From assembly GCA_043816005.1 (NCBI GenBank), contig JBDRIM010000054.1, positions 1 through 47,341 on the forward strand: 47,341 bases of DNA, in the 5' to 3' direction. Shown one piece after another: positions 264 to 44,796 of this stretch. A program made the position numbers and the translations under genes. The stretch comes from Candidatus Micrarchaeota archaeon. GTDB taxonomy: Archaea; Micrarchaeota; Micrarchaeia; Anstonellales; Bilamarchaeaceae. Below the pieces are notes generated by a model. That model ran no database searches and had not been told where the DNA came from. It saw only the letters and a program-made list of their open reading frames with translations. The stretch's first letter is position 1. Each line of letters opens with the position of its first letter.

Positions 264-1218
264 ATGGTATTTGATCCAAAAAAATTCATAGTAGAATCAG
301 AAAACGAGATAAGAAAAAGGATAGGTAAAGAACATGCAATAACTGCACTCTCAGGTGGAGTTGATTCTTTTGTAGCTGCAACTTTGGCATCAAAAGCACT
401 GCCTGGTCAAATCCATGCATTCTATGTAAACAACGGACTCATGAGAAAAAATGAAACGGAAAAAGTTGCAGCAGTTGCAAAATCACTAGGGGTTGAACTT
501 ACTGTGATAGATGCTAAAAAACGCTTCCTTGATGGACTCGTGGGTGTTGATGATCCGGAAAAAAAAACGTAAGATAATTGGCGAGATATTTGTAAGAATT
601 TTTGAAGAAGAAGCCAAAAAAAAGAAAGATATTGGATTTCTAATACAGGGAACAATTGCTCCTGACTGGATAGAAAGTGGTGGGATGGGCCGTGATACAA
701 TAAAAAGCCACCATAATGTAGGAGGCCTTCCTGAAAAAATGCATCTTAAACTCTGTGAACCATTGCGTGAATTGTATAAACACGAAGTAAGATTAGTTGG
801 AAAAGAACTTGGTCTTCCTGAAACAGTTCATCAAAGACAACCATTCCCAGGACCAGGACTTGCAGTGAGAATCGTTGGTGAGATAACAGAGGAAAAAGTG
901 AAAATAGTTCAGGATGCATGTGATATTGTTGAAACAGAACTTGATGCAGCTGCAAAAAAAATTGAAAAACCATGGCAATATTTTGCTGCGTTATTACCTT
1001 CAAAGACAGTTGGTGTGAGGGGTGATGAAAGATCATACCAATACACAGTAATTGTACGCGCAGTACGAAGCATGGATGGAATGACTGCTAATTTCTCACA
1101 TATACCAATGGAAATTCTGGAAAAAATTTCAACTAGAATAACAAATGAGATTCGGTCAGTTGGGCGAGTTGTTTATGATATAACAAATAAACCGCCAGGA
1201 ACAATAGAAATGGAGTGA
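264..1218 (+). CDS. guaAB: GMP synthase subunit B (ATP pyrophosphatase), with a one-base frameshift in an A9 run at 559-567
   Basis: [10 protein letters not shown]-loop, DPEKKRKIIG split across frames, [47 protein letters not shown]. Confidence 0.93.
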
Positions 1219-1308
1219 ACGGAGATGTTCACTACTGTCAAGAACGCTTCCGCGTTCTTAACATGGAATAAATTTTATTGATTCGCTTCGCTCATGATAA
1301 TGGAATAG
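1210..1308 (+). repeat. Hairpin insertions with triplicated guaAB terminus (ATGGAR-stop at 1210, 1263, 1300)
   Basis: Stems agtgaac/gttcact and aagaacgc/gcgttctt between the first two copies (53-nt unit). Confidence 0.7.
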
Positions 1309-1320
1309 AATTTGAAAGGA

Positions 1321-1581
1321 TCAGACATTCATTTTTTCTACAAGAGCTTGAAAATTTTTGCCGAGTTGAATTGGATCGACATGATTTTGTCTGTTTCTAA
1401 GTGCATACAAATCTCGATCTGCTTGTGCTACAGAAGTAGATGCATCTTGCGGTCGAACCTGTGCAGCACGTGAAAGTGCATCTAAAGAAGAATGGATTTC
1501 TACTTCGGCTCTTCGAATAACAACCCGTTCCTCAGGTGGTTTTTCAGTAGGTTTTAGATCACGTTTAAACACTCCAGCCAT
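1321..1581 (-). CDS. Hypothetical protein
   Basis: 86-aa ORF divergent from the TPR gene, no recognised motif. Confidence 0.6.
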   Translation of the reverse strand: MAGVFKRDLKPTEKPPEERVVIRRAEVEIHSSLDALSRAAQVRPQDASTSVAQADRDLYALRNRQNHVDPIQLGKNFQALVEKMNV

Positions 1582-1657
1582 ATTCCCACATCTTTACACT
1601 GATTGCAATATCATATTAGATAAAACCATTTAAAAGGTTACTCCCAAAGGAATAAGC

Positions 1658-2167
1658 ATGGCGGAATTCGACGAGGCACGAGACTTACTAAGCAAACAAA
1701 TGTATAAGGAAGCCGCAGAAATGCTTGATCGAATGACACCGACTAACAAAAACAAGGACGAATTTTGGTATCTTCGCGGAATTGTATCACTTAAATTAAG
1801 GAATTATGATGCTGCACAAGAATATTTTGAACGAGCAGTATTACTTGATAAAAAATCAAAATATTACCAAATAAAAGGGATGGCTCATTTTGAGGTTTTT
1901 GAGATAGAAGAAGCAATTGATGCATTTCTCAAAGCACTTGCACTTGAACCAAATAATGCCACAACGCATTTTTTCCTCTCAATATGCTATCTTTTTCTCG
2001 ATGATCCGCGATCGGATTTTTATATTAGAAAAGCACGTAAGATAGATACTAAAAAAACAAAACAACTGTTGTTAAATTTCTACTCATTATTCCTCAAAAA
2101 CGATCCTCATATGAGTACGGCTCAGAAAGCTAAAATTGAAGAAAAAATACGTAAAATAAAAACTTGA
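1658..2167 (+). CDS. Tetratricopeptide repeat protein
   Basis: WYLRGIVSLKLRNYDAAQEYFERA and KGMAHFEVFEIEEAIDAFLKALALEPNN TPR patterns. Confidence 0.85.
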   Translation: MAEFDEARDLLSKQMYKEAAEMLDRMTPTNKNKDEFWYLRGIVSLKLRNYDAAQEYFERAVLLDKKSKYYQIKGMAHFEVFEIEEAIDAFLKALALEPNNATTHFFLSICYLFLDDPRSDFYIRKARKIDTKKTKQLLLNFYSLFLKNDPHMSTAQKAKIEEKIRKIKT

Positions 2168-2178
2168 GAGTTTACTGT

Positions 2179-2649
2179 ATGAAATTAATTGCATTGATTA
2201 TGGTTTCCTTACTTTTCCTTGGTTGTATTACCCCACCTAAAAGTGGTTTGGTTCCTTCGGATCTTGAAATAAAATATAGTTATGGTGCATGTCATGCAGA
2301 ATGGGGAAGAACAACAATAACTATAGATGCAGATGGGAATGGTATATACCAAAGCGGAAGCGGAATGATGCTTGACAATGGAAGATTTGAAAATGAAGGA
2401 TTTAGAAAAACATTTACTTTGAATGAAAGTGAAATACTTGAACTACTTGACAAAATAGAAAGTAGTGGGTTTTACTCACTTGATGAACATTATAGCGATC
2501 CGATGGTAATGGATGGTTCGTGCAAATCGATTTTTATAACTAAAAACAATTTTACAAAAAGTGTTTCGGTTGTGAATACTAATGCTCCAGAGGCATATTC
2601 TACAGTCGCTGATGCCATAATAGGCATTGTTGAAAGTAAAACGAATTAA
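2179..2649 (+). CDS. Putative lipoprotein
   Basis: MKLIALIMVSLLFLGC lipobox-type signal; ATG at 2179 preferred. Confidence 0.7.
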   Translation: MKLIALIMVSLLFLGCITPPKSGLVPSDLEIKYSYGACHAEWGRTTITIDADGNGIYQSGSGMMLDNGRFENEGFRKTFTLNESEILELLDKIESSGFYSLDEHYSDPMVMDGSCKSIFITKNNFTKSVSVVNTNAPEAYSTVADAIIGIVESKTN

Positions 2650-2696
2650 TTTTCTTCATGTTGAAAATCCAGCCTGATTTTTGACTCTAGAAAAAA

Positions 2697-4423: not shown

Positions 4424-4465
4424 AGAATGAATTGGAAGTTAAAATTAATAAAAGAAGAGAATTCA

Positions 4466-4517
4466 AATAAAAAAGGAGATTGAAAGAACCGTTCAATAAA
4501 AAAGGAGATTGAAAGAA
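4466..4517. repeat. 23-bp direct repeat x2 (aataaaaaaggagattgaaagaa), period 29
   Basis: Exact copies at 4466-4488 and 4495-4517. Confidence 0.85.
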
Positions 4518-4567
4518 TCACGGGGTCTTAATCAAATTAAAAGGAAGTTAAAGAAACCTTGGTTTCT

Positions 4568-5416: not shown

Positions 5417-5478
5417 GAGGTGTTATTGAATTGATGGTTTTATAAGATTTTAGTCTGCTAGAAATTATAATAAAAACG

Positions 5479-6144: not shown

Positions 6145-6162
6145 GATAACTATAATGCATTA

Positions 6163-6279
6163 GAAAATAAAAAGGACCAAGGTTGTCCTTGAAATTCTTA
6201 TTTCAAGACAGTCAGGAAGGCTTTGCCTTCCTGCCACCTTTTTGAATCTCCTTTTTATTAGAAACGAAAATAAAAAGGA
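6163..6279. repeat. Branched hairpin insertion between 14-bp direct repeats
   Basis: gaaaataaaaagga at 6163 and 6266; inner stems ttgaaat/atttcaa and caggaaggc/gccttcctg closed by aaggt/acctt. Confidence 0.7.
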
Positions 6280-6347
6280 TCTTGATTCTTTTGAATTTGT
6301 TTTTTAGTAATTGTGAGAATAAAAAGAATTAATTTAAAATGAAAAAA

Positions 6348-13756: not shown

Positions 13757-13820
13757 ATAATTACCTGTTTATCTAAATGTATTTTTGTGTAAATCATTTT
13801 TAAAGGTTACCTGTTTTGTT

Positions 13821-13848
13821 TGAGGGGCTCGGAAGCCCCTCAGACCCC
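13821..13848. repeat. REP-like GC hairpin (gagggg...cccctc + gacccc family)
   Basis: tgaggggct/agcccctca stem; related to 33886, 35730 and 44001 copies. Confidence 0.65.
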
Positions 13849-13867
13849 ACATTTTTTTGACAAAAAA

Positions 13868-14572
13868 TTAGACTGATATATGAAGTAATGAACCAACAAT
13901 ATAACCTGCAAGTGCTGCAGCACCACCAATTAGCATAAGTTCCATACCACCATGAAACCATTTACCAGAAGTTTGATGACTTTTGTATGCACCAAATAGA
14001 AAGAGCAGAGCAAGAGAAATTACTAAAGCGATCAAAATAGAAAGAGAAACTGGGAAAAAGAAAAACGGAGCTAGTGGAATAATAGAACCAATAATAGCGC
14101 TTACACCTACTAATATTCCTTGCTTCAATGGACTCATTCCTTCGCGAGGATCTTCAAGACGAAGCTCTTCACGCATCATTGTTTCAAGCCAGACTTTTTT
14201 ATTTGAGCATATTTTGTCAACTACCTGGTCGAGTAATTTGCCGGTGAACCCCTTATCACGATATATTTGAACAATTTCTTCTCTCTCACGATCAGAAAGA
14301 TGTTCCATTTCATATATTTCGCGTTTTACTTCTGCTTCATAGTGTTCCAATTCTGCTCTTGAAGCAGTATATGCAACAGCAGCCATGCTTACACTTTCTG
14401 CAAATGCAGCTGCAAGTCCTGCAAGAATAACAATAGAAGTTGAATTAGTTGCAACTGCAATGCCAAGTATTATTCCAAGCACATTGACAAGGCCATCCTG
14501 ACCTCCAAGAATAATATTTCTGAAAAAAGCACCCTGATTAATGCGGTGTTGTTCAACGTGCGGCGTGATCAT
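13868..14572 (-). CDS. VIT1/CCC1 family Fe/Mn transporter
   Basis: RNIILGGQDGLV, AESVSMAAVAY, EREEIVQIYRDKG, MMREEL, five TM helices. Confidence 0.92.
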   Translation of the reverse strand: MITPHVEQHRINQGAFFRNIILGGQDGLVNVLGIILGIAVATNSTSIVILAGLAAAFAESVSMAAVAYTASRAELEHYEAEVKREIYEMEHLSDREREEIVQIYRDKGFTGKLLDQVVDKICSNKKVWLETMMREELRLEDPREGMSPLKQGILVGVSAIIGSIIPLAPFFFFPVSLSILIALVISLALLFLFGAYKSHQTSGKWFHGGMELMLIGGAAALAGYIVGSLLHISV

Positions 14573-14628: not shown

Positions 14629-15034
14629 GGGCTCGTAGCTCAGCCAACCTTTTTGGAGAAAAGGTTGGACCAAAAACTTTTTGTAAATTGGTCCAGTCTT
14701 CCTATCAAAAAGGTCGGAGCAACAGATGTGTTATGAATATTATAACATGGCTGAACAGAGCGCTCCGTTCGCATTTCGTGATTGGCTTGTCCAATCTATG
14801 TTCGTAATCGCTGATTACAACACCCATACAACTAGAAATAGTTTTTTTGGGGGAATGAAAATCGGAGAGGCCGGGGGTGCGAGTGTGCCTTTTGGAAAAC
14901 AACAATGTCGTAAGCGACATTGTGCCCCATTGTTCGAAGAACAATAGGGAGGCACCCCAAAACTTATTGTTGAAACGCCTTCTGCGTTTTTGGGGTATTT
15001 CAAACAAAAAGCGCCGTAATTCCCCCCGAGTCCA
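14629..15034 (+). tRNA. tRNA-Ala(CGC) interrupted in the D loop, anticodon loop (37/38, 14774-14861) and T loop (59/60, 14884-15020)
   Basis: Acceptor GGGCTCG/CGAGTCC-A with G3:U70; D stem GCTC/GAGC; anticodon arm CTCCG-TTCGCAT-CGGAG; T stem GGGGG/CCCCC; BHB motifs at two junctions. Confidence 0.88.
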
Positions 15035-15227
15035 TGAGTGAAATGAATGGACTGTATTGAACGTATCGACGTTCAATAACAAGTCCATAATTCTTTCTTT
15101 TTTATTTCCACCATTAGTTTAATCTCAGGAATTATGGACGGGAAGTGAAATCGCAATTTCACAACGAATCCATTTTATGAAATAAAATGGACGATCTTGA
15201 ACGTATCGACGTTCAAGTGGAAGTCCA
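15029..15227. repeat. Stacked hairpin elements duplicating the tRNA 3' end
   Basis: agtcca at 15029, 15082, 15222; ttgaacgtatcgacgttcaa hairpin present twice. Confidence 0.8.
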
Positions 15228-26429: not shown

Positions 26430-26703
26430 ATATAAAAACACCCCCCACCTCGATAATTTTTCCTTCATATTTCATATGAAGTTTATTTTGCTCAATCGTA
26501 AAAAAATCGGAAAATTCTGTTGTTATACCGCAATTAAGTGCAGAATCTACTGCAAGTGCAATTGATTCTGCAGAATTTATTTGTTCAGTATATTTTGCTG
26601 CCGATCTTGCGCTAGAAATTTGAGAGAGTATTGCACTCGTAAATAACATAATCAAGATGAGCGATACCAAAACAACAAACAAAAATTCGCTTGTCAGTGG
26701 CAT
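26407..26703 (-). CDS. Small pilin-like protein
   Basis: MPLTSEFLFVVLVSLILIML N-terminal helix; GGTGA RBS. Confidence 0.55.
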   Translation of the reverse strand: MPLTSEFLFVVLVSLILIMLFTSAILSQISSARSAAKYTEQINSAESIALAVDSALNCGITTEFSDFFTIEQNKLHMKYEGKIIEVGGVFIYDNSEPI

Positions 26704-26816
26704 AAAAAAATCACCATTTTTTTATTATTGAACGGAACGTAATTGTTCGACAAATCGAACAATGTGCGCCTTGAAACAAGTTTCAAGTGCGCGCCGTTCA
26801 ATGGCATGGAATCACC
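26694..26816. repeat. Three-way-junction hairpin insertion duplicating a stop/start overlap
   Basis: tcaRtggcat at 26694 and 26798; stems attgaacgg/ccgttcaat, attgttcga/tcgaacaat, cttgaaac/gtttcaag. Confidence 0.75.
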
Positions 26817-32131: not shown

Positions 32132-32283
32132 TTGATCTGTGGTGATAAGTATCACCAACATTATTTAAATACACGGCAAGCGTAATATGTTTAGACGAGT
32201 AGAGTAAAAATTAACAGATAAAAAGGAGGGCGTTATGGTTAGATTTACAACGATTAGCGTGAGCTATGCAAAAGGTGGTTGGT

Positions 32284-33855
32284 ATGAGTAATAGCCAAAC
32301 ACTTCGTGAGTTAGAAAAGAGATGGAATAGCTCATGCAAATTGATCTTTAATCAAGAAGTCGGAGGGTTGTTAGAGTATGAACCTTGGCTTATGGAGCTT
32401 ACTGAGCCGATTACTTACCACAAATCAAATCTTTCAGGCAAAGAGGTAATATCTGCACCTACAGATTACCACTCTGATTCGAAATGGATAGCATTTGATG
32501 AAGTAGATTTTAGTCAAAAGTTTGAACCACTAGAGATTAACGAAATAAAAGATATTGATTCCTTAGTAGAAGCCATATCAGAAAGATGGTATTATTCTGG
32601 CAACATAGTCTTTGGAAAATCAGGTTATATTGAGAACAGCTCGAACATAAATGACAGTTTTTACATTTTTAAAACTGCTAGATTTGGGAATTCAAAATAC
32701 TTGAGCCATTGTACCATCGGCAGGCAGAACGAGGACTGTTTTGGATGTAATGCAGTGGATGAATCATCACATTGTATAAGATGTAGTCGAATACATCGTA
32801 ACAGGCGTTGTTTTGAGGTTTGGATGAGCCAGAATACTTCTGATTCTTATTATTCATATGGTCTGAACAACTGTTCGAATTGTATATTTTCATTCAATCT
32901 AAAAAGCAGAAGGTATGCGATTGGCAACCTAGTATTGGAAGCATCCGAATATGATGCTATAAAAAATAAACTTCTGTCTGAAATGGCTGAAGAACTCATG
33001 AAGAAAAAACGGCTCCCATCACTTATCGAGCTAGTAGAAAAGAGTAAAGTCAAAGTGTCAACAGTTGCTGTTCAAAATGCACCAATATCAAAATTAAATA
33101 AATCAGGGATAGAAGATGCATTCTCAAAAACAACTAAAGTGCTTTTTGGGAAAACTCTTAGTGGGAGTATTGATGATTATGCATTATGGCTTACAAGGCA
33201 CACTAGAGGAGTGGAAACACGATTTTCTGCAGTAAATGGCCAAGAGCTCTTCACTGCCAGTTATGCAAACTATCCAAAACTTCCAAGAGAGAGATTGCTA
33301 AACGCAGATGATGCAGAGGGATTAGGGAACCGTACAAGCATTAGTAAAGAAGACGCACAATCTCTGAGCCTAAAAAATGTACATGAAAAAATAGGCTACC
33401 TTGCATTTTTCAATGTGGAGTTATTAGAAGGCACCAACCAGAATCAGATAAATTGTGCAGTTTCAATCGAATCGTCCAATTGTTACAGAAGTTCAGTCAC
33501 AGAATATTCTAAATATTGTGGTTACTCGTTCTGGCCAAGAAATTCCCAGTATTTGTTTGGTTGCGATTCGCCGTTTGATTCAAATTTTAGTATTAACTGC
33601 TATTCATGTACTTCACTCGCAAGATGTTTTGAAATAGACTGTTGTGGTTATTGCTCGGATTGTTACTTCTGTCATAATTGTGAAAATGTACATGATTCTA
33701 TGTTTTGTTTTAATGTAAAAAATTTGAGAAATGCAATTGGAAACACCCCGATAAGCCGGGAAAAGTATCAACAAACAAAAACTGACCTGAAAAACTGGAT
33801 AGTGGAAAAACTTGAACAAAAGAAAGAGGTGGATTTAGATGTTTTTTCACTTTAG
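32284..33855 (+). CDS. Cys-rich repeat protein, fused A+B modules
   Basis: INEIKDIDS (A), FWPRNS and CYFCHNCENVHDSMFCFNVKN (B); paralogous to seven other genes here. Confidence 0.85.
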   Translation: MSNSQTLRELEKRWNSSCKLIFNQEVGGLLEYEPWLMELTEPITYHKSNLSGKEVISAPTDYHSDSKWIAFDEVDFSQKFEPLEINEIKDIDSLVEAISERWYYSGNIVFGKSGYIENSSNINDSFYIFKTARFGNSKYLSHCTIGRQNEDCFGCNAVDESSHCIRCSRIHRNRRCFEVWMSQNTSDSYYSYGLNNCSNCIFSFNLKSRRYAIGNLVLEASEYDAIKNKLLSEMAEELMKKKRLPSLIELVEKSKVKVSTVAVQNAPISKLNKSGIEDAFSKTTKVLFGKTLSGSIDDYALWLTRHTRGVETRFSAVNGQELFTASYANYPKLPRERLLNADDAEGLGNRTSISKEDAQSLSLKNVHEKIGYLAFFNVELLEGTNQNQINCAVSIESSNCYRSSVTEYSKYCGYSFWPRNSQYLFGCDSPFDSNFSINCYSCTSLARCFEIDCCGYCSDCYFCHNCENVHDSMFCFNVKNLRNAIGNTPISREKYQQTKTDLKNWIVEKLEQKKEVDLDVFSL

Positions 33856-33929
33856 TTTGTTGATCGCTTTGCGATGGGGATACGAAGGGGCACTGCCCCT
33901 TCAAACAGAAAAAACTGACATATGTCAGC
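33856..33929. repeat. Intergenic hairpin cluster incl. REP-like gaagggg/ccccttc stem
   Basis: atcgc/gcgat, gaaggggca/tgccccttc and ctgaca/tgtcag stems. Confidence 0.65.
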
Positions 33930-33964
33930 TTATTTCTATATGCGATGAGAATCCAGTTCAATAC

Positions 33965-35602
33965 ATGGAAAGTTATAATGAATTAAACAAAAAATTAACG
34001 CCTGTAGACGTCAATATTTGCCAAGCCGAGCTCGGTAAAGAATGGAAAACCACCTCGAGATTAGTGTTTGGTGGAGATGTTGGTGAGCTTAGTGATTACA
34101 AAGAATGGCTAATCGAACTGAACAATCCCAGATTTGTAAAAAAATCTTCGATTTCTGGTGTGGACACTGTTTTTTCCAGTAGTGAGTATTTTGACGATGC
34201 TAAATTTATGGCAATGAACGAGATAGACATAAACAAAAAATTCGAACCATTAAACATTAATGAAATAAAGGATATGGATTCCATAGTAGATGCAGTTCAA
34301 GAACGGATAGTTTATTGTGGAAATGTTGTTTTGGGCAATTCAAAATTTGTTGAAAAAAGTTCCAATGTAACTAATAGTTTTTACGTCTATGATTCTGTAA
34401 AAGTTAGTGATTGTAAGAATATAGCGTACTCGCAATATCTTAGACTATGCGAAAACATATTCGGAACAAATGAAGGGGGAGAATCAAAATATTGCATAAG
34501 ATGCTGTATACTTTTCAAGAATGCACGAAGTTTTGAATTGTGGAAAAGTGCCAGTTGCACAGATTGTTATTACTCTTTTGGATTGGACGGTTGTAATGAT
34601 GCTATTTTTTCATTTAATCTCCAGGGTAAATCCAATATAATAGGAAACTTACAACTTCCAAAAGACAAATTTCAAGAAATAAAGAAAAAACTACTTTCGG
34701 AGATGCGAAAAGAATTAATCAAAAACAAAAAACTACCTTCTTTAGTTGATCTTGTATCAAAAGAACCAGTTGATTTGGGTGGAATTGAAACGGGACGAAA
34801 AAGAACAGATGACGAAACAAATAACGACCGCTCAGTAGTGGATAGTGCATTCGGAAAAACCTCCGAGCTTCTACTGAATAAAAAACTCCCGGAAAAAATG
34901 GAAGATTACGATTTATGGCTGAAATCGCATATTGTGGTTCCTTATTCTGTAAAATCAGTGTTGAGTAAAAAACCAGTCCAGCTTTCTGAGTGGCCTGGTT
35001 TGGCGCAGTTGCCAAAAAACAGAATAGTAACTTTGAAAGAAGCCAGGGAACTGGCGAAAATCGCAATAACCATCGAGCAAGCGGAAAAACTAGACCTAGC
35101 AAATGCACCTGAACAACTAGGTAAAATAGCTTATTTCCCACCAGAAGAAATGACTGGAACAAATACTAATCTAATAGAATGCCAGTGGGGATCTTCAGCA
35201 GCAAATTGCTATCGTTCAGTTATCTGTGTTTATAGCAAAAACTGTGGTTACTGTTCCTGGCCAAGAAGTTCTGAGAATTGTTTTGGTTGTGGAATTGTTT
35301 TTGATTCAAATTTCTCCATGAAATGCTATGATTCAGTAAAACTTTCTAGATGTTTTGAAGTGGATTCGTGTTCTTCATGCACAGACGTTTATTTCTCTCA
35401 TAATTGTGAAAATGTTCGGGATTCAATGTTTTGTTTTAATGTCAAGAATTTGAAAACTGCCATTGGGAATTTTTCACTCCAACCAGAATCTTACAAAAAA
35501 ATCAAAACAATGCTCCAGAACCAGATATATGATGAGCTTCAATCAAAAAAATCCTTAAAATGGAATATTTTTTCCTTGAACCGAGGTGATGGTAGTGATT
35601 AA
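33965..35602 (+). CDS. Cys-rich repeat protein, fused A+B modules
   Basis: Same motifs as 32284-33855; start MESYNEL preferred because the longer ORF start runs through intergenic hairpins. Confidence 0.85.
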   Translation: MESYNELNKKLTPVDVNICQAELGKEWKTTSRLVFGGDVGELSDYKEWLIELNNPRFVKKSSISGVDTVFSSSEYFDDAKFMAMNEIDINKKFEPLNINEIKDMDSIVDAVQERIVYCGNVVLGNSKFVEKSSNVTNSFYVYDSVKVSDCKNIAYSQYLRLCENIFGTNEGGESKYCIRCCILFKNARSFELWKSASCTDCYYSFGLDGCNDAIFSFNLQGKSNIIGNLQLPKDKFQEIKKKLLSEMRKELIKNKKLPSLVDLVSKEPVDLGGIETGRKRTDDETNNDRSVVDSAFGKTSELLLNKKLPEKMEDYDLWLKSHIVVPYSVKSVLSKKPVQLSEWPGLAQLPKNRIVTLKEARELAKIAITIEQAEKLDLANAPEQLGKIAYFPPEEMTGTNTNLIECQWGSSAANCYRSVICVYSKNCGYCSWPRSSENCFGCGIVFDSNFSMKCYDSVKLSRCFEVDSCSSCTDVYFSHNCENVRDSMFCFNVKNLKTAIGNFSLQPESYKKIKTMLQNQIYDELQSKKSLKWNIFSLNRGDGSD

Positions 35603-35789
35603 CGAACTGTGTATTACGAGAGGGAAGTGTGAAACCGCAGATTGCCTTGAACAAAGTTCAAAACAGTCTCGAACGGAATGCCGTTCGAGGACATTCACAA
35701 ATAGTGAGTTGTGCCCTTTTTTCCATCAGGGATTCAGGGGGATGTGCCCCTCGAACAAACCAAAACCGTTCTACAGCGGCACTAGTGAT
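35593..35789. repeat. Composite hairpin element containing the 42-bp inverted-repeat arm 35738-35779
   Basis: tagtgat at both ends; stems ttgaac/gttcaa, ctcgaacgg/ccgttcgag, gggg/cccc. Confidence 0.65.
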
Positions 35790-35824
35790 ATATACTTGAA
35801 AAAAGAGATAGTTGGTGTGGGAAT

Positions 35825-38098
35825 ATGGAAGTGAGAGAGGTCCACCTCTATTCTGAAAAAGTAGAGGAGGAAGATGTGAAGAATTTATTCAACAGGGTCA
35901 CTAAATCAAGATTTCCGTTTCTTGGTTTTATCGACTTCTCAGATTTATTCTCGTTAAATGCACTCACGTTAGTCGTAAAAAGAAATATTAATACAGTAAA
36001 ATTCTATGTAAAGGAAAAGGACTGCCTTCAGAATATCTCTCCACTGATTTTTCCATACAGGATGTGCGATCCAAGCCTCCTGAAATTATCTGAGGGCTCC
36101 TTTTTCCCTGTTCCGAGAATGTATGTTATTGATGGAAATAAATATGATCTTCTTGATTTCATACTGAAAGAAAAGATAGAACAGCTGACCTTACATGTCA
36201 CTAAATTCATGGGACAGTTTGTTGCAAGCGGCTCTTTGGTAAGTGAAAATGGACAAAAAGGCCAAGTGATTGTCACCAACCCACACAAATTCTTGAAGAT
36301 TAATTTAGAAAAAAATCCATCCATTTATATTGAACTTCTGGAACCATTACCAAAACAAATTTACATGAGTTCCAAATTTCCTGTTTTCGAAGAAACGGGA
36401 GTTAGTATTGGTGTAGATAATTACGATCCGCTTCAGCATACTATAATAGCAGGAACTTCAGGTTCAGGAAAAAGTAAAGGTTTGTTTGTTTTGCTAAAAG
36501 CATTGGAAGCCAAATACAAAGACAATACAAGAATAGTAGTTGTTGACCCACACGGAGAATTTGCTAAGCTTTTCCCTCATGCTAAGATAATCAATTTTAT
36601 AGACAATTACGTTGAGCCTTTGGACGTAGGACGAGATAAATCACCAATGCTTACTCAGCTTGTTTCTCAATTAATTACTTCATCAATTGGTCAGGAAAAT
36701 AAATATTCAGAAAGAGTGTTGTTCTATACAGTTCACCTTCTTTCATCGATAAACAAACTTGATTTGAACAACATAAGTTTACTGCTTACTGATTCTTCAA
36801 TTAAAGCAGAGTATGTAAGCATGTGCGATAATGATGAGGTAAAGAGATTCTTTGATGAAGAATATAATGACATACATATACATCATTTCAATAATGCAAT
36901 TCTGCCTATTTTGAACTTCGTAGGCGAGTATCAGTTATACTTAGGTAAAGAAAAGAAACGTGAGGGACTTTTAGAAGCAATTCAGCAAAATAGGATAACA
37001 GTTGTTGCATTTGATCCGAAATTCTTCGGAAGAAGGATGATTAGTTTCCTTGCTGGTGCAGTCATAAACCAGATGTACATATTAGCCATTACTGGAAAAT
37101 TAATGGACAAACCAACAGTACTTGTTGTTGATGAATTCCCAAGAGTGGAAACAAGAGTTACCAAGGACATTCTATCAGAAACAAGAAAATTCAATTTGTT
37201 TGCCTATCTTTCCTGCCAGTATTTAGGTCAACTTAGCAAAGAAGTTCTTGATTCAATTGTATCAAATGCTAGGAACATCATTGCATTCAAAATAAATAGA
37301 CAGGATGCTACTATGCTTAGTTCTATTATGGAGATAAAAGTCGAGGAGTATTTTAAAAAATCACGAGCCACCACTGAATTGGAAGAATCGAAAAAAGAGA
37401 TGTTTGTTCGACTTCACCAAAGAGAATGTATAGTAAGATTATTTGATGGTGTAAAATATTTGCTTCCAATGAAGCTCAAAATAGTAGATGCAAGAAAGTG
37501 GGGATTACGAGAAGATGGAGCTGAACCGTATAAAGAAAAAACACCACCGCCTGAAGCACCAGGAGTATTGAGATCAAAACCGATGGAAAATGTTTTCCAG
37601 AATCAAGCACTAAATGATGGACCACCAGCGCAACCATTACCTAGAATGTCAGTTGCACAGCAACAGGAAGCTCAACCAAGAATGGTACAACCTGATGAAC
37701 CAAATTATACACAAGAAAATGAACCTGACGAAGAAAAAGAGGAAAAACCAGAATTGCCAGAACCAATGACCGAAAGCCCATGGTTGGTAGAGACTCCAGA
37801 TGCCATTTATCAGCTTGAAAAGGCAAAGCTTAGAGGAGATATACCAAAACAACAATTCCAGGTGCCAGAGATGCCAAAGGTACTTGAACCAACGTCTGGT
37901 GATTCAGCAAATGCACCACCTCCGGAAACAGAAATTGAAGCACTAAAACAGGAGCTTAAGGAAGCGATGGCAAAATTGCAAAATTTTGATAGTAGTGGAA
38001 AACATCAGAGTTCTAATACAACAAAAAAAACAAATGCAGCAGAAAAAAAATCAGAAGATTCGCCACACAAAAAATCTAAGAAAAAGAAGAAAGAGTAG
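35825..38098 (+). CDS. HerA/VirB4/coupling-protein-like ATPase (DUF87 type) with disordered C-terminus
   Basis: HTIIAGTSGSGKS, VVVDPHGEF, LVVDEFP, ETRKFN...QYLGQL. Confidence 0.85.
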   Translation: MEVREVHLYSEKVEEEDVKNLFNRVTKSRFPFLGFIDFSDLFSLNALTLVVKRNINTVKFYVKEKDCLQNISPLIFPYRMCDPSLLKLSEGSFFPVPRMYVIDGNKYDLLDFILKEKIEQLTLHVTKFMGQFVASGSLVSENGQKGQVIVTNPHKFLKINLEKNPSIYIELLEPLPKQIYMSSKFPVFEETGVSIGVDNYDPLQHTIIAGTSGSGKSKGLFVLLKALEAKYKDNTRIVVVDPHGEFAKLFPHAKIINFIDNYVEPLDVGRDKSPMLTQLVSQLITSSIGQENKYSERVLFYTVHLLSSINKLDLNNISLLLTDSSIKAEYVSMCDNDEVKRFFDEEYNDIHIHHFNNAILPILNFVGEYQLYLGKEKKREGLLEAIQQNRITVVAFDPKFFGRRMISFLAGAVINQMYILAITGKLMDKPTVLVVDEFPRVETRVTKDILSETRKFNLFAYLSCQYLGQLSKEVLDSIVSNARNIIAFKINRQDATMLSSIMEIKVEEYFKKSRATTELEESKKEMFVRLHQRECIVRLFDGVKYLLPMKLKIVDARKWGLREDGAEPYKEKTPPPEAPGVLRSKPMENVFQNQALNDGPPAQPLPRMSVAQQQEAQPRMVQPDEPNYTQENEPDEEKEEKPELPEPMTESPWLVETPDAIYQLEKAKLRGDIPKQQFQVPEMPKVLEPTSGDSANAPPPETEIEALKQELKEAMAKLQNFDSSGKHQSSNTTKKTNAAEKKSEDSPHKKSKKKKKE

Positions 38099-38128
38099 TT
38101 TTTAAATTTTCACAGGTGGAGTGAGTAC

Positions 38129-39151
38129 ATGGTGTTAACGCAAACAGAAGAAAAAATCTTGCGTTCAATCGTTGTCCGCTCTGAAAATGATCCTGATAAT
38201 CCTGAATTTCCTCCAAAAAGTCCAAAATTTCCTGCAACTCCAACACATAAAATAGACGTTCCTGGTTTCAACAATGTCTGGCTGAAGGATGAGAGTTACA
38301 ATCCAACAGGCACACATAAGGATAGGATGGCATGGGAGATAGTTGTTACATATAGAAGATTTTTACTTGCTAAAAAACTAGGCCAAAGAAAAGGACAATT
38401 ACCTCAAATGTCAATAATATCATCAGGTTCTGCTGCAATTGCAATCCAAATACTTCTGAAAACCTATAGATTACCTAACTTGAAGGTACTTATTGATGAG
38501 AGACTTGACAATAAGATCATTGCATCCATGAAAAAAATCGGGTGTGAAATTTATAAAACAGATTTGAGTGTAAAGGAACTGAACTGGAAGGATATTCTCG
38601 AACTTACAAACAATCCAGATGGTTTTGACATAACATCAAATGAAGCTCTTGATCCTAGTACTAGATTTTATGATTGGCTGAGTTATGAGATCATTAACAA
38701 CTCACCAGAGTATTGTTTCGTTCCATTTGGAACTGGGAAATTATATGAAAACATACTCAATGTAAACAAAAAAGAAGTTTCAACTACTCATCATGATCCA
38801 AGATTCAAAGGTCATGTAAATGTGCTGAGAAAGTGTAATTTTCTTGGGGCAACAACAAACAACCCGAATACAAAAGCAACAAAACTTTATTCACAGCATC
38901 TTCCGTTTGTTCATTATGATGAACAATGGATAAGATTATATCAGGATTCTGCTTTTTGTGGTCCTGAAACAAGTGTCCATTTGCTTAAGGAAGGTTATTT
39001 GGAAGAAGCAATGGAAATTGCGCAAGCAAACAACATAAAATGCGAATATTCTGGGATTGCAGGATTGGCGCTTATGCTTCAGTTGAGTATATATCTTCCA
39101 AGAAACAAAAAAATGCTAATTGTGAGTACTGGGAAGACAAAATACCCGTAA
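38129..39151 (+). CDS. Fold-type II PLP enzyme (threonine synthase-like)
   Basis: ATPT, LKDESYNPTGTHKDR, SSGSAA, VPFGTG, EYSGIAGL, IVSTG. Confidence 0.85.
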   Translation: MVLTQTEEKILRSIVVRSENDPDNPEFPPKSPKFPATPTHKIDVPGFNNVWLKDESYNPTGTHKDRMAWEIVVTYRRFLLAKKLGQRKGQLPQMSIISSGSAAIAIQILLKTYRLPNLKVLIDERLDNKIIASMKKIGCEIYKTDLSVKELNWKDILELTNNPDGFDITSNEALDPSTRFYDWLSYEIINNSPEYCFVPFGTGKLYENILNVNKKEVSTTHHDPRFKGHVNVLRKCNFLGATTNNPNTKATKLYSQHLPFVHYDEQWIRLYQDSAFCGPETSVHLLKEGYLEEAMEIAQANNIKCEYSGIAGLALMLQLSIYLPRNKKMLIVSTGKTKYP

Positions 39152-39912
39152 TGATAAAACGTACATCCAATATTGTAAATGTTCATCTCTAGCTTTTTTT
39201 CAGTTTCTATCTTGTTTGCAATTTCTCCAATTATCTTTTCCTTTATCTTGAGATAGGTTTCTCTACCAACTTCTATGTTTCCAATTGCATACCTCAGTGA
39301 TTTTACATTGAAACAAAACATGCAGTTGTTCAAGTTCTCACAATTGTGACAAAAATAGCAGTCAGTGCAAGTACTACAATCACTTAATTCAAAACATCTG
39401 GCCAACTTTACAGAATTATAGCACTTTATAGAAAAATTAGATGCGAATATAAAATGCGAACCAAAACAGTATTCTGATTCTCTAGGCCAAAAGCAGTAGG
39501 CATCGCATTTTGAGTTGATATACCAAACTCCATCGAAACAGTGTTGAGCATTCATATAGGTTGATGTTTTTTTTAGATCTTGATTCTGACCAAGCATAAC
39601 ATCAGAAGTCACAAATTTGATATCTTTCAATTTCTCAGAAGCATTTGCCAAGGTTAGTATCTTTGTATCCTCTTCTGAAAGTTGCCGTTTACCAAGCTCA
39701 ACTGACTCATCTAGAGTAACCATGTTCTTCTTTATTGAACTGTAAAATATAATGTCCGGAACATAAACTGTGTTATTACTTATCTGGGATTTTGTGTATA
39801 ATGCCTTGCCAACAGATTCCAAAAGCCATGTCCGATAATCTTCCAAATTATATAATTTTTTACCGAATAGAATTGAGGTGGTTTCCTGGAATGCTTTTTC
39901 TATCTCATCCAT
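39079..39912 (-). CDS. Cys-rich repeat protein, B module
   Basis: IEKAFQETTSILFGK, FWPRES, CYFCHNCENLNNCMFCFNVK; 3' end overlaps the convergent gene by 73 nt. Confidence 0.85.
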   Translation of the reverse strand: MDEIEKAFQETTSILFGKKLYNLEDYRTWLLESVGKALYTKSQISNNTVYVPDIIFYSSIKKNMVTLDESVELGKRQLSEEDTKILTLANASEKLKDIKFVTSDVMLGQNQDLKKTSTYMNAQHCFDGVWYINSKCDAYCFWPRESEYCFGSHFIFASNFSIKCYNSVKLARCFELSDCSTCTDCYFCHNCENLNNCMFCFNVKSLRYAIGNIEVGRETYLKIKEKIIGEIANKIETEKKLEMNIYNIGCTFYHYGYFVFPVLTISIFLFLGRYILN

Positions 39913-40693
39913 GAGCATCACCATTAATTATGTCTATGAGGGACGGTATTGTTTTTTTCGCTTTGAGCATGTCACGAATATCTTGAATTAGTTTTTCCTT
40001 TAGTTTGTGATATTCTTCAGGTGTGAATTGATGATTGCCAATCCTATGGCTCTTGTTTCTTTGGTTAAATGAAAACATACAGTTGGTGCAGTTTTCTAGA
40101 CTACCAGTGAAATAACAATCAGACGCAACATAATTTCGAATAGTTTCCATACAACGAACATTTTTGTATGTTTCAAAAGTTTTTATATTAAATTTGCTGC
40201 CTTCGCCGATGGCATTACCACCAAAAATGTACTCGGCAAATCTTAGAACAGACGAACATGCGACGAATTTGCAATCATAAACATCTTGGGTTTTGTAGAT
40301 GAATGAAGAATTTATACAACGATTAGTGATTTCAACATTAAGTGAATTACCAAGCACAACATTACCAATATAATATGCTTTTTCACGTACTGTACCGATG
40401 ATAGAATCGATGTCCTTGATGTCATTTACATTAAATGTGACATTGCCAATTTTTTCCATGTAGATACCGGTTTCATCAAGACTGAGAAACTTGGCACCAT
40501 GACAGACATTTTTAGAAGAAACAATAACTTCTTTTCCAGAAATAGCTGATTTCTCCATACCAAATGGTTCAACATATTTCAAAAGCCAATTTTCATATTC
40601 GGTTAAATCGCCTATATCTTCACCAAACAGCACTCTACATGTCTTTTTCCATGCAGTATTAATGTCGGCATTGGGAGTAGAGTTAATTTCCAT
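39905..40693 (-). CDS. Cys-rich repeat protein, A module
   Basis: AWKKTCRVLFGEDIG, NVNDIKDIDS, GNVVLGNS, CTNCMFSFNQRNK. Confidence 0.85.
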   Translation of the reverse strand: MEINSTPNADINTAWKKTCRVLFGEDIGDLTEYENWLLKYVEPFGMEKSAISGKEVIVSSKNVCHGAKFLSLDETGIYMEKIGNVTFNVNDIKDIDSIIGTVREKAYYIGNVVLGNSLNVEITNRCINSSFIYKTQDVYDCKFVACSSVLRFAEYIFGGNAIGEGSKFNIKTFETYKNVRCMETIRNYVASDCYFTGSLENCTNCMFSFNQRNKSHRIGNHQFTPEEYHKLKEKLIQDIRDMLKAKKTIPSLIDIINGDAHG

Positions 40694-41462
40694 TACCACA
40701 CCCGAGGTTAAAGATATTCAATTTTAATTTTTTGTCTTTTTCAAGTTTTTTGGTTAGTTCATCTAGAATCAACTGTTTGATTTCAGTATATCGTTCTTTT
40801 CCGACTTCGACATTTGCAATGGCATACCTTTTGGCTTTTACATTGAAACAGAACATGCAGTTGTTTAGATTTTCACAATTGTGACAGAATAATGAATCTG
40901 TACAGTTGCTGCAATCACTCATCTCAAAGCAACGGTTGAGATTCTCTGAATTGTAGCATTTGATGCAAAATTGAGAAGAGAAAGTATACGACGTACCAAT
41001 GCTATAGTTTGATTGTCTTGGCCAGAAACAGTAGTAGCAATATTTTGACCGAACCATGGCAACTGACTTGTAGCAATAATGAGAGGAGTAGTAAAAATCG
41101 CAATCGGCAAGGTTACTACATTCGCCATATTTAGTATTAGGAGTAACAGTTGATATTTTTTGCAGAGTGTTTTTTGCATTTGAAAAACTAAGTTGTCCTA
41201 GCTCAGTTGGAGAGAGTTGTTTTTTACCCTGGATGTCATATCCTTCTTCGATGGTAAGTATATTATGTTTTATATCACGATAGAAATCAAATGGGGGAAG
41301 GTAGATTTTTTCGCCGCTCATGATTGATTTGCCATACTCATTAGTAGATACATTTTCAGTTAGCCATGCTTCATATTCTTTAAAATTAGTAAGTCGTTTA
41401 CCTAAAACAACTGTAGTTATCGTCTGAAAATTTTTTTCAAGATCTGCTTCGAGTTTATCCAT
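40683..41462 (-). CDS. Cys-rich repeat protein, B module
   Basis: FWPRQS, FCHNCENLNNCMFCFNVK. Confidence 0.85.
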   Translation of the reverse strand: MDKLEADLEKNFQTITTVVLGKRLTNFKEYEAWLTENVSTNEYGKSIMSGEKIYLPPFDFYRDIKHNILTIEEGYDIQGKKQLSPTELGQLSFSNAKNTLQKISTVTPNTKYGECSNLADCDFYYSSHYCYKSVAMVRSKYCYYCFWPRQSNYSIGTSYTFSSQFCIKCYNSENLNRCFEMSDCSNCTDSLFCHNCENLNNCMFCFNVKAKRYAIANVEVGKERYTEIKQLILDELTKKLEKDKKLKLNIFNLGCGNGN

Positions 41463-42276
41463 TCCATTCACCTTTTCCACTTATTATCTCAATGACTGAT
41501 GGAATTTTTTTCTTTTGTTTAAGTTCATCTTTTATTTCACTAACCAATTTCGATTTCAATTCTGCATATTTATCCTTCGTAAGTTGAACATTTCCAATAA
41601 GATAGTGTTTGTTTCTTTGGTTGAAAGAAAAGAGGCAATTCGTACAATCTTCAAGACTGGCAGAATAATAACTATCTGATGTAACATTGCAATGATATGT
41701 TTCCAGACATCTGATTTGTTTGTGTGGATCTAAAACCTTGATACAGAATTGGATTTCACCACCAAAACAACAACCAAATGAATATTCCGGGCTTCTGATG
41801 GATGTTGTAAATGCAACATATTTGCCATCGTAGACATCTTGGCAGCCGTAAGCGTATGAGGTATTAACGCAACGATGCGAATCTATAACATTGCGTGAAT
41901 TCCCAAGGATGGTGTTACCAGCATAACAAACTTTTTCCTTTATTGTTTCAAGTATTGAATCAATATCTTTAATTTCATTTACATTGAATGGGAAAGTAAA
42001 TGTCTTTTTTTCATATTCAATCATTTCCTCATGACCAATGACTGGAACGTTTTTTGATATGCGGTGAGATGAAATGGTAACATCTCGACCACTCAGAATT
42101 GATTTTCTTTTTTCGATTGGATCCGTATATTTTTTTAGATAGCCCTCATACTCGATCAGGTCACCGATATCTTCACCAAGTAAAACCTTGCATGTTTTTT
42201 TCCACGAGTTGTCAAGCTCTGCTTGGCAAATATTGACGCTAGATTGCATCAATGGCTTATTTAGTTCAGGATCCAT
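41455..42276 (-). CDS. Cys-rich repeat protein, A module
   Basis: WKKTCKVLLGEDIG, NVNEIKDIDS, CTNCLFSFNQRNK. Confidence 0.85.
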   Translation of the reverse strand: MDPELNKPLMQSSVNICQAELDNSWKKTCKVLLGEDIGDLIEYEGYLKKYTDPIEKRKSILSGRDVTISSHRISKNVPVIGHEEMIEYEKKTFTFPFNVNEIKDIDSILETIKEKVCYAGNTILGNSRNVIDSHRCVNTSYAYGCQDVYDGKYVAFTTSIRSPEYSFGCCFGGEIQFCIKVLDPHKQIRCLETYHCNVTSDSYYSASLEDCTNCLFSFNQRNKHYLIGNVQLTKDKYAELKSKLVSEIKDELKQKKKIPSVIEIISGKGEWNG

Positions 42277-43045
42277 TACTATCACCTATATTGAAAATAT
42301 CATATTTCAGATTTTTTGTTTTTGTTAATTCTTTTCCTATATCTGCAAGTATTTTTTCTTTAATTTCACGGTATTTCACCTGAGGTAGAAGTACATTGGC
42401 AATTGCATTTTTGAGATTTTTTGCATTAAAACAGAACATACTGTCACTTACATTTTCACAATTGTGGCAAAAGAGAAGATCACGGCAATTAGACGAAGAA
42501 TCTACTTCAAAACATCTTGATAACAAAATTGATCGGTATGCATGAATACAAAATTGTGAGTTAGTTAGTGCATAACAGCCGAACATGTTTTCGCAATATA
42601 ATGTATAATTTGAGAATCCTATGTTCTTGACTCCTAAATAAGTATCTTCTCCGACATAGACATTTCTTCCGCCCCCACCACCACTTACTTTTTCCATGTT
42701 TTCATATTCTTGATATCTAAAATTACCACAGAAAAAAGAAAGTGGTTTGATAAATTTAGTCATTAGTTCGCCTATAGTTGCAGTTTCAATATCTTTTGCT
42801 ATGAATGGAGAAACGTTTACCCTGTCCATTTCTTCCATTGAAATGATTTTGGATTTGTTGAATGGTTTGTCAAAATAGTTCATTGTTGGTGGGATCCAAA
42901 CATCTTTGCCACTTACTATTGATTTTGCAAGAGTTGGTAGTGGTACGTGCTTTCCAAGCCAGTCTCCATAATCATCGATATTGCTAAGTTTTTGACCAAG
43001 AAGAAGTGCTGTGATTTCTCCAAATGCATGTTCTATTTCAATCAT
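42266..43045 (-). CDS. Cys-rich repeat protein, B module (divergent)
   Basis: IEHAFGEITALLLGQKL, RCFEVDS, FCHNCENVSDSMFCFNAKN. Confidence 0.85.
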   Translation of the reverse strand: MIEIEHAFGEITALLLGQKLSNIDDYGDWLGKHVPLPTLAKSIVSGKDVWIPPTMNYFDKPFNKSKIISMEEMDRVNVSPFIAKDIETATIGELMTKFIKPLSFFCGNFRYQEYENMEKVSGGGGGRNVYVGEDTYLGVKNIGFSNYTLYCENMFGCYALTNSQFCIHAYRSILLSRCFEVDSSSNCRDLLFCHNCENVSDSMFCFNAKNLKNAIANVLLPQVKYREIKEKILADIGKELTKTKNLKYDIFNIGDSNGS

Positions 43046-43049
43046 ATTA

Positions 43050-43820
43050 TCACGACAGTTTCATTAGATCTATTATCGAATATTCCAATTTCTTTTTTCT
43101 TTTAAGTTCATCAGAAAGATCAGTAATAAGTTGGGTCTTGATACGAAGGTAGCGATCCCGATCAAGCTGGATATTACCAACCAGGTATCTTTTTGATCGT
43201 TCATTGAAAGTGAATAAACAGTCTGTGCAGTTGAGCAGATTATAAGAAAGATAGCAGTCTGATGCACGAACAGAAGTAGAAACTTCAAAACAGCGAGTTA
43301 GGGAATTATTGTAGCAGCAACGTAGAATGTATTTTGATTGTCCACTAGACATTGATGCAAAAGAGTTTTCACTCTCTCTTGCAAGATAGCTATAGGCAAT
43401 ATACTTTCCACGCTCTACGATTGAAGAATTAAATACCCCAGTACTATCGATTATTGCATCAGAATTCTCTATGTATTTTGAATTTCCAAGGATTTTGTTG
43501 CCGCCATAAACAAACTTTTCGCCTACGGCGTGTAAGATGGAATCGATATCCTTTATACTGTTAATATCAAGTGGTTTTGATGCAAGATTGTTGAAGTGTG
43601 TTAATTCACTATCATAATCAAAAAATTTTGCCTTTTATGAGTAACTGTTGGATGCTACCCAGACTGATTTTCCGGAGAATGTAGAGACTACAGATTTTCC
43701 GGGTACTGCAACATGCATATATTCTGCAAAGTCCTTCAACTCCCCGATTTCCTGCCCAAATAGAATTTTAGAAGTTGATTTCCACGCAGTATTAACTATT
43801 TCATAAGTTTCGAGTGCCAT
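43050..43820 (-). pseudogene. Cys-rich repeat protein, A module, with one in-frame TAA at 43635-43637
   Basis: ...NSYS*KAKFFDY...DINSIKDIDS...GNKILGNS continues in frame into ORF 43050-43352; GGAGG RBS before ATG 43820. Confidence 0.85.
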
Positions 43821-43976
43821 AATTTTGACCTCCTTATCTGGATTCGGTGGTTTGGTGATTCGTTCTTGGATTTGCCCCAAAAAAACGAGAGCGTGGATTG
43901 CCATAAACGTTGAAAAGTAGAATAGATTTCAGAATTCATGTTATTTTACTCTCTATAACCATATAATAGAGTAACA

Positions 43977-44018
43977 CCGCTGTAGAACGGTTTTGGTTTA
44001 TTCGAGGGGCACATCCCC
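43977..44018. repeat. 42-bp inverted copy of 35738-35779
   Basis: 41/42 identical to the reverse complement; weaker similarity extends ~20 bp outward. Confidence 0.9.
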
Positions 44019-44140
44019 TCGAACCCCTTGAAAAAAAGTACATAAAAACTTTGGGGTTAAGTGGATTCGGCTCCTTCCAACCCTTGCGCATATGATGAAC
44101 AATAAACAGAATTATAAACAGATTCCCACACTAAAACCAT

Positions 44141-44796
44141 ATGGCAGTTCTAGTTCGCAAAGCAAATTTCGCCGACTTGGGCATTGTTCACGGTTATATG
44201 CATGTTACGGGAAAACCAGCATTGGATAATCTAGCTGGATCATGTAAATCTTTAGGTATGCAAGTACACTATCCTGATTTACCTGAAAAAACTGGACAAC
44301 CAAAATTAGCAGCATGTCAGGAAGCAAGCTTCCTGACTGCCATTGTTCGAATCGTCGAACAATAGCATGGCTTGAAGCATTGAATAGAAGTATGCCAGTT
44401 ATTAATGAAACTTCGGCGTTAGTTGCTCTTTCTTTAGGATGCCCAACTGTATTGCAGTTGTTGGCTAGTGAAAAGCGAATTGAACAAGTTGGATTATTAG
44501 TTTTGGTATCTCCAGGTACTCGGCCTGTCGTAATCCAAAAAGGGTATGGTTTCTTAGGCCATTTCTTTGATGGTTTGGATAGAACTTTTGCTCGAGTTGC
44601 AGAAAAAGTCAGACGTATCGAAGTACTGACATCTGATAATGATCCATTTTCATCTCATGTTGATATTTTCGCTATGGCAAAACGACTTGGTGCTAGTTTC
44701 CACAGTATCCATGATGGAGGTCATCTTGATACGGATTCGGGTTTTTACAAATTTCCACTGGTTTTAGACATGATTGCGCCAGTTGTAACCGAATAA
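44141..44796 (+). pseudogene. RBBP9/YdeN-like alpha/beta hydrolase interrupted by a 53-nt double-hairpin insertion
   Basis: IVHGY, PDLP...PKLAA|WLEAL, ALSLG, SDNDP, GGHL; removing 44317-44369 restores the frame. Confidence 0.8.
44311..44369. mobile_element. 53-nt double-hairpin element with 6-bp target duplication AGCATG
   Basis: gtcaggaagc/gcttcctgac and attgttcga/tcgaacaat perfect stems. Confidence 0.75.

Follow-up and report, generated by a model that had tools for sequence, protein, structure and literature searches.

Double-hairpin elements (DHEs) of fungal mitochondria are GC-rich, conserved in sequence and described as potentially mobile (PMC10085805). Here we describe archaeal units of a similar outline, which we followed from a 47,341-nt stretch of a Candidatus Micrarchaeota genome (contig JBDRIM010000054.1; the whole stretch is called the window below) through that genome and its relatives. 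They are a real family of mobile double-hairpin mini-elements, a variant of non-autonomous palindromic mobile DNA. Like the DHEs in the account of PMC10085805, the units consist of two adjacent hairpins, carry no gene, lie mostly between genes, recur as near-identical copies across species and are present at a site in one genome and absent in another; unlike them, they are archaeal, AT-rich and about 53% alike at the median, follow a rule of linker length and occur as tRNA introns. The GC clusters of yeast mitochondria, as presented in PMC4478555, are likewise palindromes of about 40–50 nt that merge, shuffle, convert their flanks and have no enzyme of their own, but they differ from our units in their high GC content and a fixed AG target duplication.

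As far as the cited accounts go, the units look most like DHEs and GC clusters and work most like PATEs or REPINs, yet they lack the partner and the sequence hallmarks of the latter two. PATEs of the IS200/IS605 group resemble them in being ends only, with two hairpins and no target duplication, and are moved in trans (PMC7290912). Unlike PATEs, our units do not co-occur with Y1 transposases and have no fixed 4–5-nt target, and the IS200-type ends of the genus carry other hairpins. REP/REPIN sequences share with the units a palindrome doublet as the moving entity, clusters that arise by insertion into older copies, and an extragenic bias (PMC3116915, PMC3733652). The REP/REPIN-RAYT system as described there is set apart by its GTAG or CGTC tag at the hairpin feet, which the listed units lack on inspection by eye, and by conserved arms; moreover, no Y1 gene was found flanked by unit clusters. 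Archaeal bulge-helix-bulge (BHB) tRNA introns (PMC3239211) are comparable in that one unit is a complete BHB intron and the host has EndA and heavily interrupted tRNAs. Unlike BHB introns, most units lie outside tRNAs, or in older introns, without the splicing motif. Folded single-stranded DNA (ssDNA) substrates of tyrosine recombinases, such as integron attC and CTX attP, may be comparable too: they have two short stems and a mismatched, bulged centre, and they undergo single-strand transfer with little homology. In contrast to these, the whole element is here the folded site, and no IntI- or Xer-specific partner has been shown.

The source genome (G000) is archaeal, 1.26 Mb in size, 36.5% GC and 86% complete, and the genes of the window, which is its contig C54, are archaeal as well. 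For comparison we used a close relative, G023 (1.19 Mb covered), and G042 (1.25 of about 1.47 Mb covered). G000 contains 103 adjacent perfect double hairpins versus 4 and 9 in two dinucleotide shuffles, a genome-wide excess in line with a first-pass annotation of the window. The corresponding numbers are 43 versus 2 in G023 and 3 versus 2 in G042, which is therefore truly negative over the part covered. Stems of 10 bp occur 84 times in G000, where 6 are expected by shuffling, and the longest perfect stem measures 11 bp. Counts of the hairpin motif divide the genus of 40 genomes into 26 element-rich ones (8–42 matches) and 14 element-poor ones (0–5, the same as in controls). A stricter motif, applied order-wide, was positive in 65 of 98 genomes of the family, with up to 38 copies, and gave mostly 0–2 outside it apart from two exceptions with 9 and 10 copies; within the family the spread of units is patchy.

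The units are diverse in sequence: median similarity between them is 53%, and only 8 of 9008 pairs reach 90% or more. Hairpin modules nevertheless recur between sites, as the first-pass annotation had pointed out, and subfamilies are separable by their linker, with ACTGTC or ACTGCC in family A, a single base in family B (at start codons), TTA or TTT in family C (at GAGGT) and GCCC in family D, besides others. GWWCG-type hairpins had a neighbouring hairpin in 64 of 78 cases by a lenient test without a control. G023 also contains an exact tandem duplication of a 57-nt hybrid unit (C11:73129-73250). The family A motif was found at 13 loci of species genomes, five in Micrarchaeota (two of these in Bilamarchaeaceae), four in entries named 'uncultured archaeon' and four in bacteria, where the second hairpin is missing. 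Virus scans returned 0, 0, 6 and 0 matches, the six being isolated and without a second hairpin, and a metagenome scan with SecF recovered only distant relatives (53–80% identical). Rfam 15 gave no match in the window at gathering score and three chance-level matches at E up to 1. The orphan hairpins that we examined revealed no gene-bearing parent element. A literature search, which covered main texts and few subscription papers, yielded no published description of this element family.

We conclude that the units are mobile because at least 15 of their sites are empty in relatives, as the first-pass annotation had foreseen, and because near-identical copies occupy unrelated loci. Out of 100 G000 loci, 58 could be aligned to G023 on both sides, and at least 12 of these showed a clean gap of 48–58 nt by eye; where a site is empty, both hairpins are missing and not one. 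Two insertions in the MetRS gene (54 and 51 nt, both in frame) correspond to empty sites in the relative, a small Toprim gene interrupted by a unit on contig C60 is intact in G042, and G023 has units of its own at sites that are empty in G000. As to copies, two G023 units at different loci match a family C unit of G000 at 98% identity, and the window unit at 6184..6236 is 96% like a copy at an unrelated locus on contig C20. Units are found in both orientations relative to transcription, in MetRS as well as in tRNA introns (judged by eye), which favours a DNA-level step. A few sites are common to G000 and G023, and pairing is kept there via compensatory changes. One such shared unit (G000 C61:9214, G023 C9:309460) now forms the C-terminus of SRP54, possibly by exaptation. 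The hairpin pairs at C22:15851, C41:44355 and C61:12015 were discarded as elements, as no gap appears when they are aligned to G023. In four low-depth DNA contig sets, positions 1210 and 6163 of the window are spanned in the filled state, with no joint that skips a unit, a result that is uninformative on rare excision.

The first-pass annotation had stressed a recurrent length of 53 nt. We found no single peak; lengths range from 48 to 58 nt with a mode of 50–54 nt, and direct-repeat spacings of 50, 51, 52, 53 and 54 nt occurred 10, 7, 8, 10 and 9 times, respectively, among 128 pairs. The conserved feature is geometry and not length, namely the outline of a closed dumbbell that has been opened at a single place. 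Every unit is laid out as hairpin 1, linker L1, hairpin 2 and linker L2, with stems of 7–11 bp, and for 33 of the 40 units that have a clear repeat the length equals twice the distance between the hairpin centres plus 1 or 2 (Spearman 0.84). It follows that the outer linker L2 exceeds the inner linker L1 by 1–2 nt, a difference that is maintained while L1 itself varies from 1 to 9 nt. Repeats of at least 6 nt were present at the +1/+2 spacing in 33 of 135 pairs, compared with 0–9 at other offsets. The 52-nt intron of tRNA-Ala(TGC), whose length is fixed by an empty allele, fits the rule at +1 when counted on the sequence. In several subfamilies L2 is largely complementary to L1. The two linkers of families A and D were seen on inspection to change in step, each following the complement of the other (ACTGTC with AACA, ACTGCC with AGCA, GCCC with AGGG), and an A-C mismatch recurs at the foot of hairpin 2.

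The window itself contains the following units and related insertions.

1211..1263, plus strand: 53-nt family A unit with TG...CA ends in the last guaA codons, where it provides a new stop codon and leaves the final residues unchanged; the site is unoccupied in G023 and G042.
6163..6265, no strand assigned: 103-nt composite of a single-hairpin host repeat of about 50 nt, with its own 14-nt direct repeat, and a nested unit; the unfilled core of about 34 nt occurs elsewhere in G000 and in G023.
6184..6236, minus strand: the nested 53-nt family A unit, with 0 nt in common with either flank.
14900..14949, plus strand: 50-nt family D unit with a GCCCC linker, within the 3' arm of the first hairpin of tRNA intron 4 (listed further below); it includes the recurrent hairpin module at 14929; boundary taken from hairpin symmetry, 0 nt shared.
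15029..15081, plus strand: 53-nt unit at a tRNA 3' end; 7 nt of its first stem are the reverse complement of the end of the host tRNA.
15134..15223, plus strand: two overlapping units of 53 and 55 nt with a common middle hairpin.
26694..26797, minus strand: 104-nt composite on a start codon, with a family B unit of about 50 nt that re-creates a GGTGA ribosome-binding site; empty in G023.
26740-26793: 54-nt unit nested in the 104-nt composite.
33992..34039, plus strand: degenerate insertion of 48 nt, in frame and close to the N-terminus in a hypothetical gene; the stretch is absent in the G023 orthologue.
42208..42255, minus strand: degenerate copy of 48 nt that resembles the one at 33992 and lies in frame in a paralogous gene; as an insertion it is suggested only by a shorter N-terminus of the G023 protein, the DNA alignment being ambiguous.
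44315..44367, plus strand: 53-nt unit of family A, which shifts the reading frame of a serine hydrolase gene (44141-44796, PF06821).

Direct repeats are present at the spacings originally claimed (ATGGA at 1210/1263, CAG at 14641/14694, AGTCCAT at 15029/15082 and AGCATG at 44311/44364, as well as TCCA at 15169/15224 and a 14-nt repeat at 6163/6266). Their interpretation as target duplications could not be upheld: there is no shared nucleotide at six junctions and a single one at two, and elsewhere junction homology amounts to 10–13 nt and up to 21 nt, the latter being an exact copy of FtsZ coding sequence. Since the shared length runs from 0 to 21 nt, the repeats represent no fixed target duplication. 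Family D junctions, with the boundary placed by deduction, share no nucleotide. Insertion is precise and needs no duplication, and the flanking repeats read as similarity of the target to the circle junction, combined with conversion in some cases. The supposed unit at 14641/14694 turned out to be the first two thirds of a 79-nt tRNA intron, which makes its CAG repeat incidental. Neither of the two 48-nt units proposed at 33992 and 42208 is flanked by an exact repeat at that spacing, and both are degenerate; the G023 orthologue of the first lacks the stretch. Around them, at 32266-43904, about eight paralogous hypothetical genes surround a HerA-like ATPase gene, and two of them contain this same degenerate insertion. 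A further window feature, at 13815-13870, combines a GC-rich and an AT-rich hairpin without a flanking repeat and resembles another repeat family found at several loci.

The 103–104-nt elements, previously regarded as branched forms, are instead units of 53–54 nt nested in a 50-nt repeat. Unoccupied copies of such a single-hairpin repeat, of about 34 nt, are found in both G000 and G023. Other copies, at 6184, on C20 and in G023, are each longer by exactly 53 bases, and this insert has no base in common with either flank. This repeat family of about 34–50 nt, itself polymorphic, is a landing pad for units at one bond, and its loci include window 6163-6265, G000 C10:9051, C41:74569 and C41:5401 and several in G023. 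The first-pass annotation had also noted that a stem arm often matches the host target. Requiring at least 7 of 9 positions, we found such a match between arm and host flank for 28 of 144 arms, compared with a permutation mean of 2 and a maximum of 8; roughly one third of the 28 rows come from tandem arrays. Targets tend to resemble the circle junction (often ATGG, AAGG or GAGG) together with the first arm, or are older hairpin stems.

Nearly every surviving unit lies in non-coding DNA, keeps the reading frame, sits at a gene edge or is found inside a tRNA intron. Only 3 of 97 strict units lie inside coding DNA, where 84% would be expected. Gene-internal units are mostly in frame; core proteins, MetRS and ArgF among them, have gained loops from units. 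The two out-of-frame cases concern the serine hydrolase gene, which has two paralogues in the genome, and the small Toprim gene, and both genes look dispensable; without the unit at 44315, the serine hydrolase frame encodes 200 aa colinear with an uninterrupted orthologue in another genome, G012. Units at gene edges often restore a stop codon or a ribosome-binding site, and 13 of 17 start-adjacent units have a ribosome-binding motif versus 44% of all genes, a comparison in which the gene caller favours such starts. Several apparent fusions of open reading frames (ORFs) were dismissed as neighbouring genes or chance.

Many units are located in or beside tRNA genes. In the window they accompany an interrupted tRNA gene.

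14629..15034, plus strand: tRNA-Ala(CGC) gene interrupted by four introns; once the exons are joined, ARAGORN calls a 72-nt tRNA, and G042 has an intronless homologue.
14644..14722, plus strand: intron 1, 79 nt, in the D-loop, with a BHB motif; central helix 4/4 pairs.
14726..14755, plus strand: intron 2, 30 nt, in the D-loop; central helix 4/4 only once intron 1 is removed.
14774..14861, plus strand: intron 3, 88 nt, at the canonical position 37/38; central helix 4/4 with one G-U pair.
14884..15020, plus strand: intron 4, 137 nt, in the T-loop; central helix 4/4 with one G-U pair.

In the raw window this gene is invisible both to ARAGORN, which called no tRNA, and to Rfam. At its date, PMC3239211 stated a maximum of three introns per archaeal tRNA. 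The most direct link between units and introns is the tRNA-Ala(TGC) gene on contig C85, whose whole 52-nt canonical intron is one unit with a 4/4 central helix; the G023 gene is intronless. Similar double-hairpin introns of the D-loop are polymorphic between G000 and G023. Outside tRNAs, 31 junction sets of units had a splicing helix versus 32.6 in controls and thus show no excess, and these units are probably not mRNA introns, judging from sequence; spliced mRNA introns were rejected on this test together with the avoidance of coding DNA. For Asgard tRNA introns, a recent preprint found neither a mobile-element donor nor a general route of arrival (bioRxiv 10.64898/2026.10.13.758758); here, by contrast, a donor family can be seen.

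Several other features of the tRNA genes were observed alongside. A separate intron family with T-run/A-run hairpins fills many tRNA genes and differs between G000 and G023; it is also found directly after a protein stop codon (G000 C41:25056). The region of G000 C43:5222 carries a 147-nt insertion, absent in G023, in which the 3' end of tRNA-Pro is repeated twice and accompanied by its reverse complement. At window position 14658, two other samples (one low-depth contig each) have A instead of G, which perfects an 11-bp intron hairpin. G000 has two genes with an EndA domain, a 360-aa multi-unit form and a 163-aa form.

We looked for the enzyme that might mobilise the units. The 86% complete G000 genome yielded no Y1, no IS110 and no resolvase gene, and a simple HUH motif scan of its proteins gave no match. 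The partners suggested by the first-pass annotation, Y1/RAYT or a reverse transcriptase, do not co-occur with the units: the former was found in 9 of the 40 genus genomes (7 of 26 rich, 2 of 14 poor) and the latter in 10 (8 of 26 and 2 of 14). Of 12 Y1 loci, three had one unit within about 600 nt and none had flanking clusters, and the hairpins that do flank them differ from the units. DUF559 (2 of 40 genomes) and GIY-YIG (24 of 40) do not track the units either; the GIY-YIG matches are almost all long ORFs, probably UvrC, and none is in G000 or G023. Of the 1287 G000 proteins, 246 have a counterpart in G023 and none in the covered 1.25 of about 1.47 Mb of G042, and among the matches listed for these 246 we saw no transposase-like candidate by eye. 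Tyrosine integrases were present in 21 of 26 rich versus 5 of 14 poor genomes. Two reverse transcriptase loci of G000 (C41:51891-55313 and C4:2723-6079) are frameshifted or partial. By context both look to be of the diversity-generating retroelement type, and next to one of them is a tyrosine integrase gene (G000 C41) whose 412-aa product weakly matches a zinc ribbon.

To account for the observed anatomy, precise insertion, polymorphism and selection pattern of the units, we cautiously favour a model in which they are non-autonomous Micrarchaeota elements of 48–58 nt that move as an ssDNA dumbbell circle, with an enzyme supplied in trans, targeting assisted by base pairing, and fixation by replication. 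One strand would be peeled out and closed into a dumbbell by the enzyme, which would read the two stems and the bulged centre and open L2 at a point three base pairs past the mismatch in the foot of hairpin 2. The strand would then be transferred into a target with the help of base pairing, and replication would fix the product. Occasional conversion tracts may bring host sequence into one arm, after which the partner arm would be re-matched, and the sequence diversity of the units may have arisen in this way. The leading single candidate for the mover, though less likely than not, is a tyrosine recombinase acting by single-strand exchange; otherwise it would be an unrecognised HUH-type enzyme or a core host enzyme. 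Of the original picture, a structure- and length-conserved non-autonomous element mobilised in trans, structure and mobility thus stand, the fixed length does not, and the step in trans is presumed; the dumbbell geometry and the connection with tRNA introns are additions to it.

Several points weigh against the dumbbell-circle model. No enzyme has been found, and neither a circle nor excision has been observed. The link to tyrosine integrases is weak, as its p=0.007 overstates the case for genomes that are related, units are absent from G042 despite its two integrases, and integrases are missing from five rich genomes. Circular folding energy misses the true length (mean −9.8 kcal/mol versus −10.2 two bases shorter), and the centre of family B and C units is for the most part unpaired. 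Among 29 pairs from other genomes, repeats of at least 4 nt were found in 6 at the +1/+2 spacing versus 1–5 elsewhere. The empty allele of family D was deduced and is not orthologous, and as the subfamilies differ in end sequence, they may not all share one mechanism.

Part of the evidence would fit an RNA route. Units could have arisen and still travel as tRNA introns, with excision by EndA, closure by a ligase into RNA dumbbell circles and re-entry with reverse transcription; the whole-intron unit of tRNA-Ala(TGC) with its empty G023 allele, the polymorphic D-loop introns, the many units around tRNA genes and the two EndA-domain genes all fit this route, as do the four-base loops, which are NNCG or CGNN in 43 of 80 and which we take to resemble RNA tetraloops. 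We consider it unlikely, given that the splicing helix is not in excess outside tRNAs, that coding DNA is avoided and both orientations occur, that only 8 of 26 rich genomes have a reverse transcriptase, and that G042 has intron-rich tRNAs yet no units. Somewhat less likely still is copying without a dedicated enzyme, in which template switching or break repair would carry units into microhomology sites and fold-back synthesis would perfect their arms. The variable homology, including the 21-nt FtsZ copy, the resemblance of arms to host flanks and the absence of a co-occurring transposase agree with this, but it is difficult to reconcile with six precise zero-homology junctions, with different units using the same bond of one repeat family, with a +1/+2 rule that spans unrelated linkers, and with a G042 genome wholly without units.

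Two more explanations appear very improbable to us. The TG...CA ends of family A, and units with two GAACG hairpins whose loops are arranged as inverted ends (in G000, G010, G048 and G138), would suit a DDE-type miniature inverted-repeat transposable element with terminal inverted repeats and a fixed target duplication, an idea that the zero-duplication junctions largely refute; the shared length is not fixed, family D ends differ, and the ends are complementary over merely 2–3 nt, in family A only. Immobile, host-selected regulatory or structural features such as terminators, leaders or protein-binding sites would explain why many units lie at starts or ends of core genes, why start-adjacent units so often have a ribosome-binding motif, and why a unit common to G000 and G023 keeps its pairing through compensatory changes. 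As a general origin this is refuted by presence and absence at the sites compared between relatives, by the two genes disrupted out of frame and by the nesting of units in each other; exaptation of single copies is possible.

Beyond the dumbbell-circle model itself, we tentatively suggest, as a more doubtful extension, that the units represent a minimal class of mobile DNA, a geometry-defined dumbbell circle of about 50 nt that would find its targets by base pairing, capture host sequence, use an enzyme outside the HUH, IS110, DDE and reverse transcriptase routes, and act as a new source of tRNA introns, kept where the inserted end pairs with the exon. The present analysis contributes a census across the genome, the rule of geometry, junctions without duplication, a unit that is a whole intron and has an empty allele, and the exclusion of candidate enzymes. 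The units are among the smallest mobile DNAs and keep their shape, not their sequence, with none of the tested transposases as a partner; an identified enzyme could reveal a new chemistry of precise strand transfer. In practical terms, they hide tRNA genes from annotation and rewrite the starts and stops of genes. A visible mobile family with a member that is a whole, lineage-specific intron, together with its empty allele, makes one route by which archaeal tRNA genes may gain introns testable.

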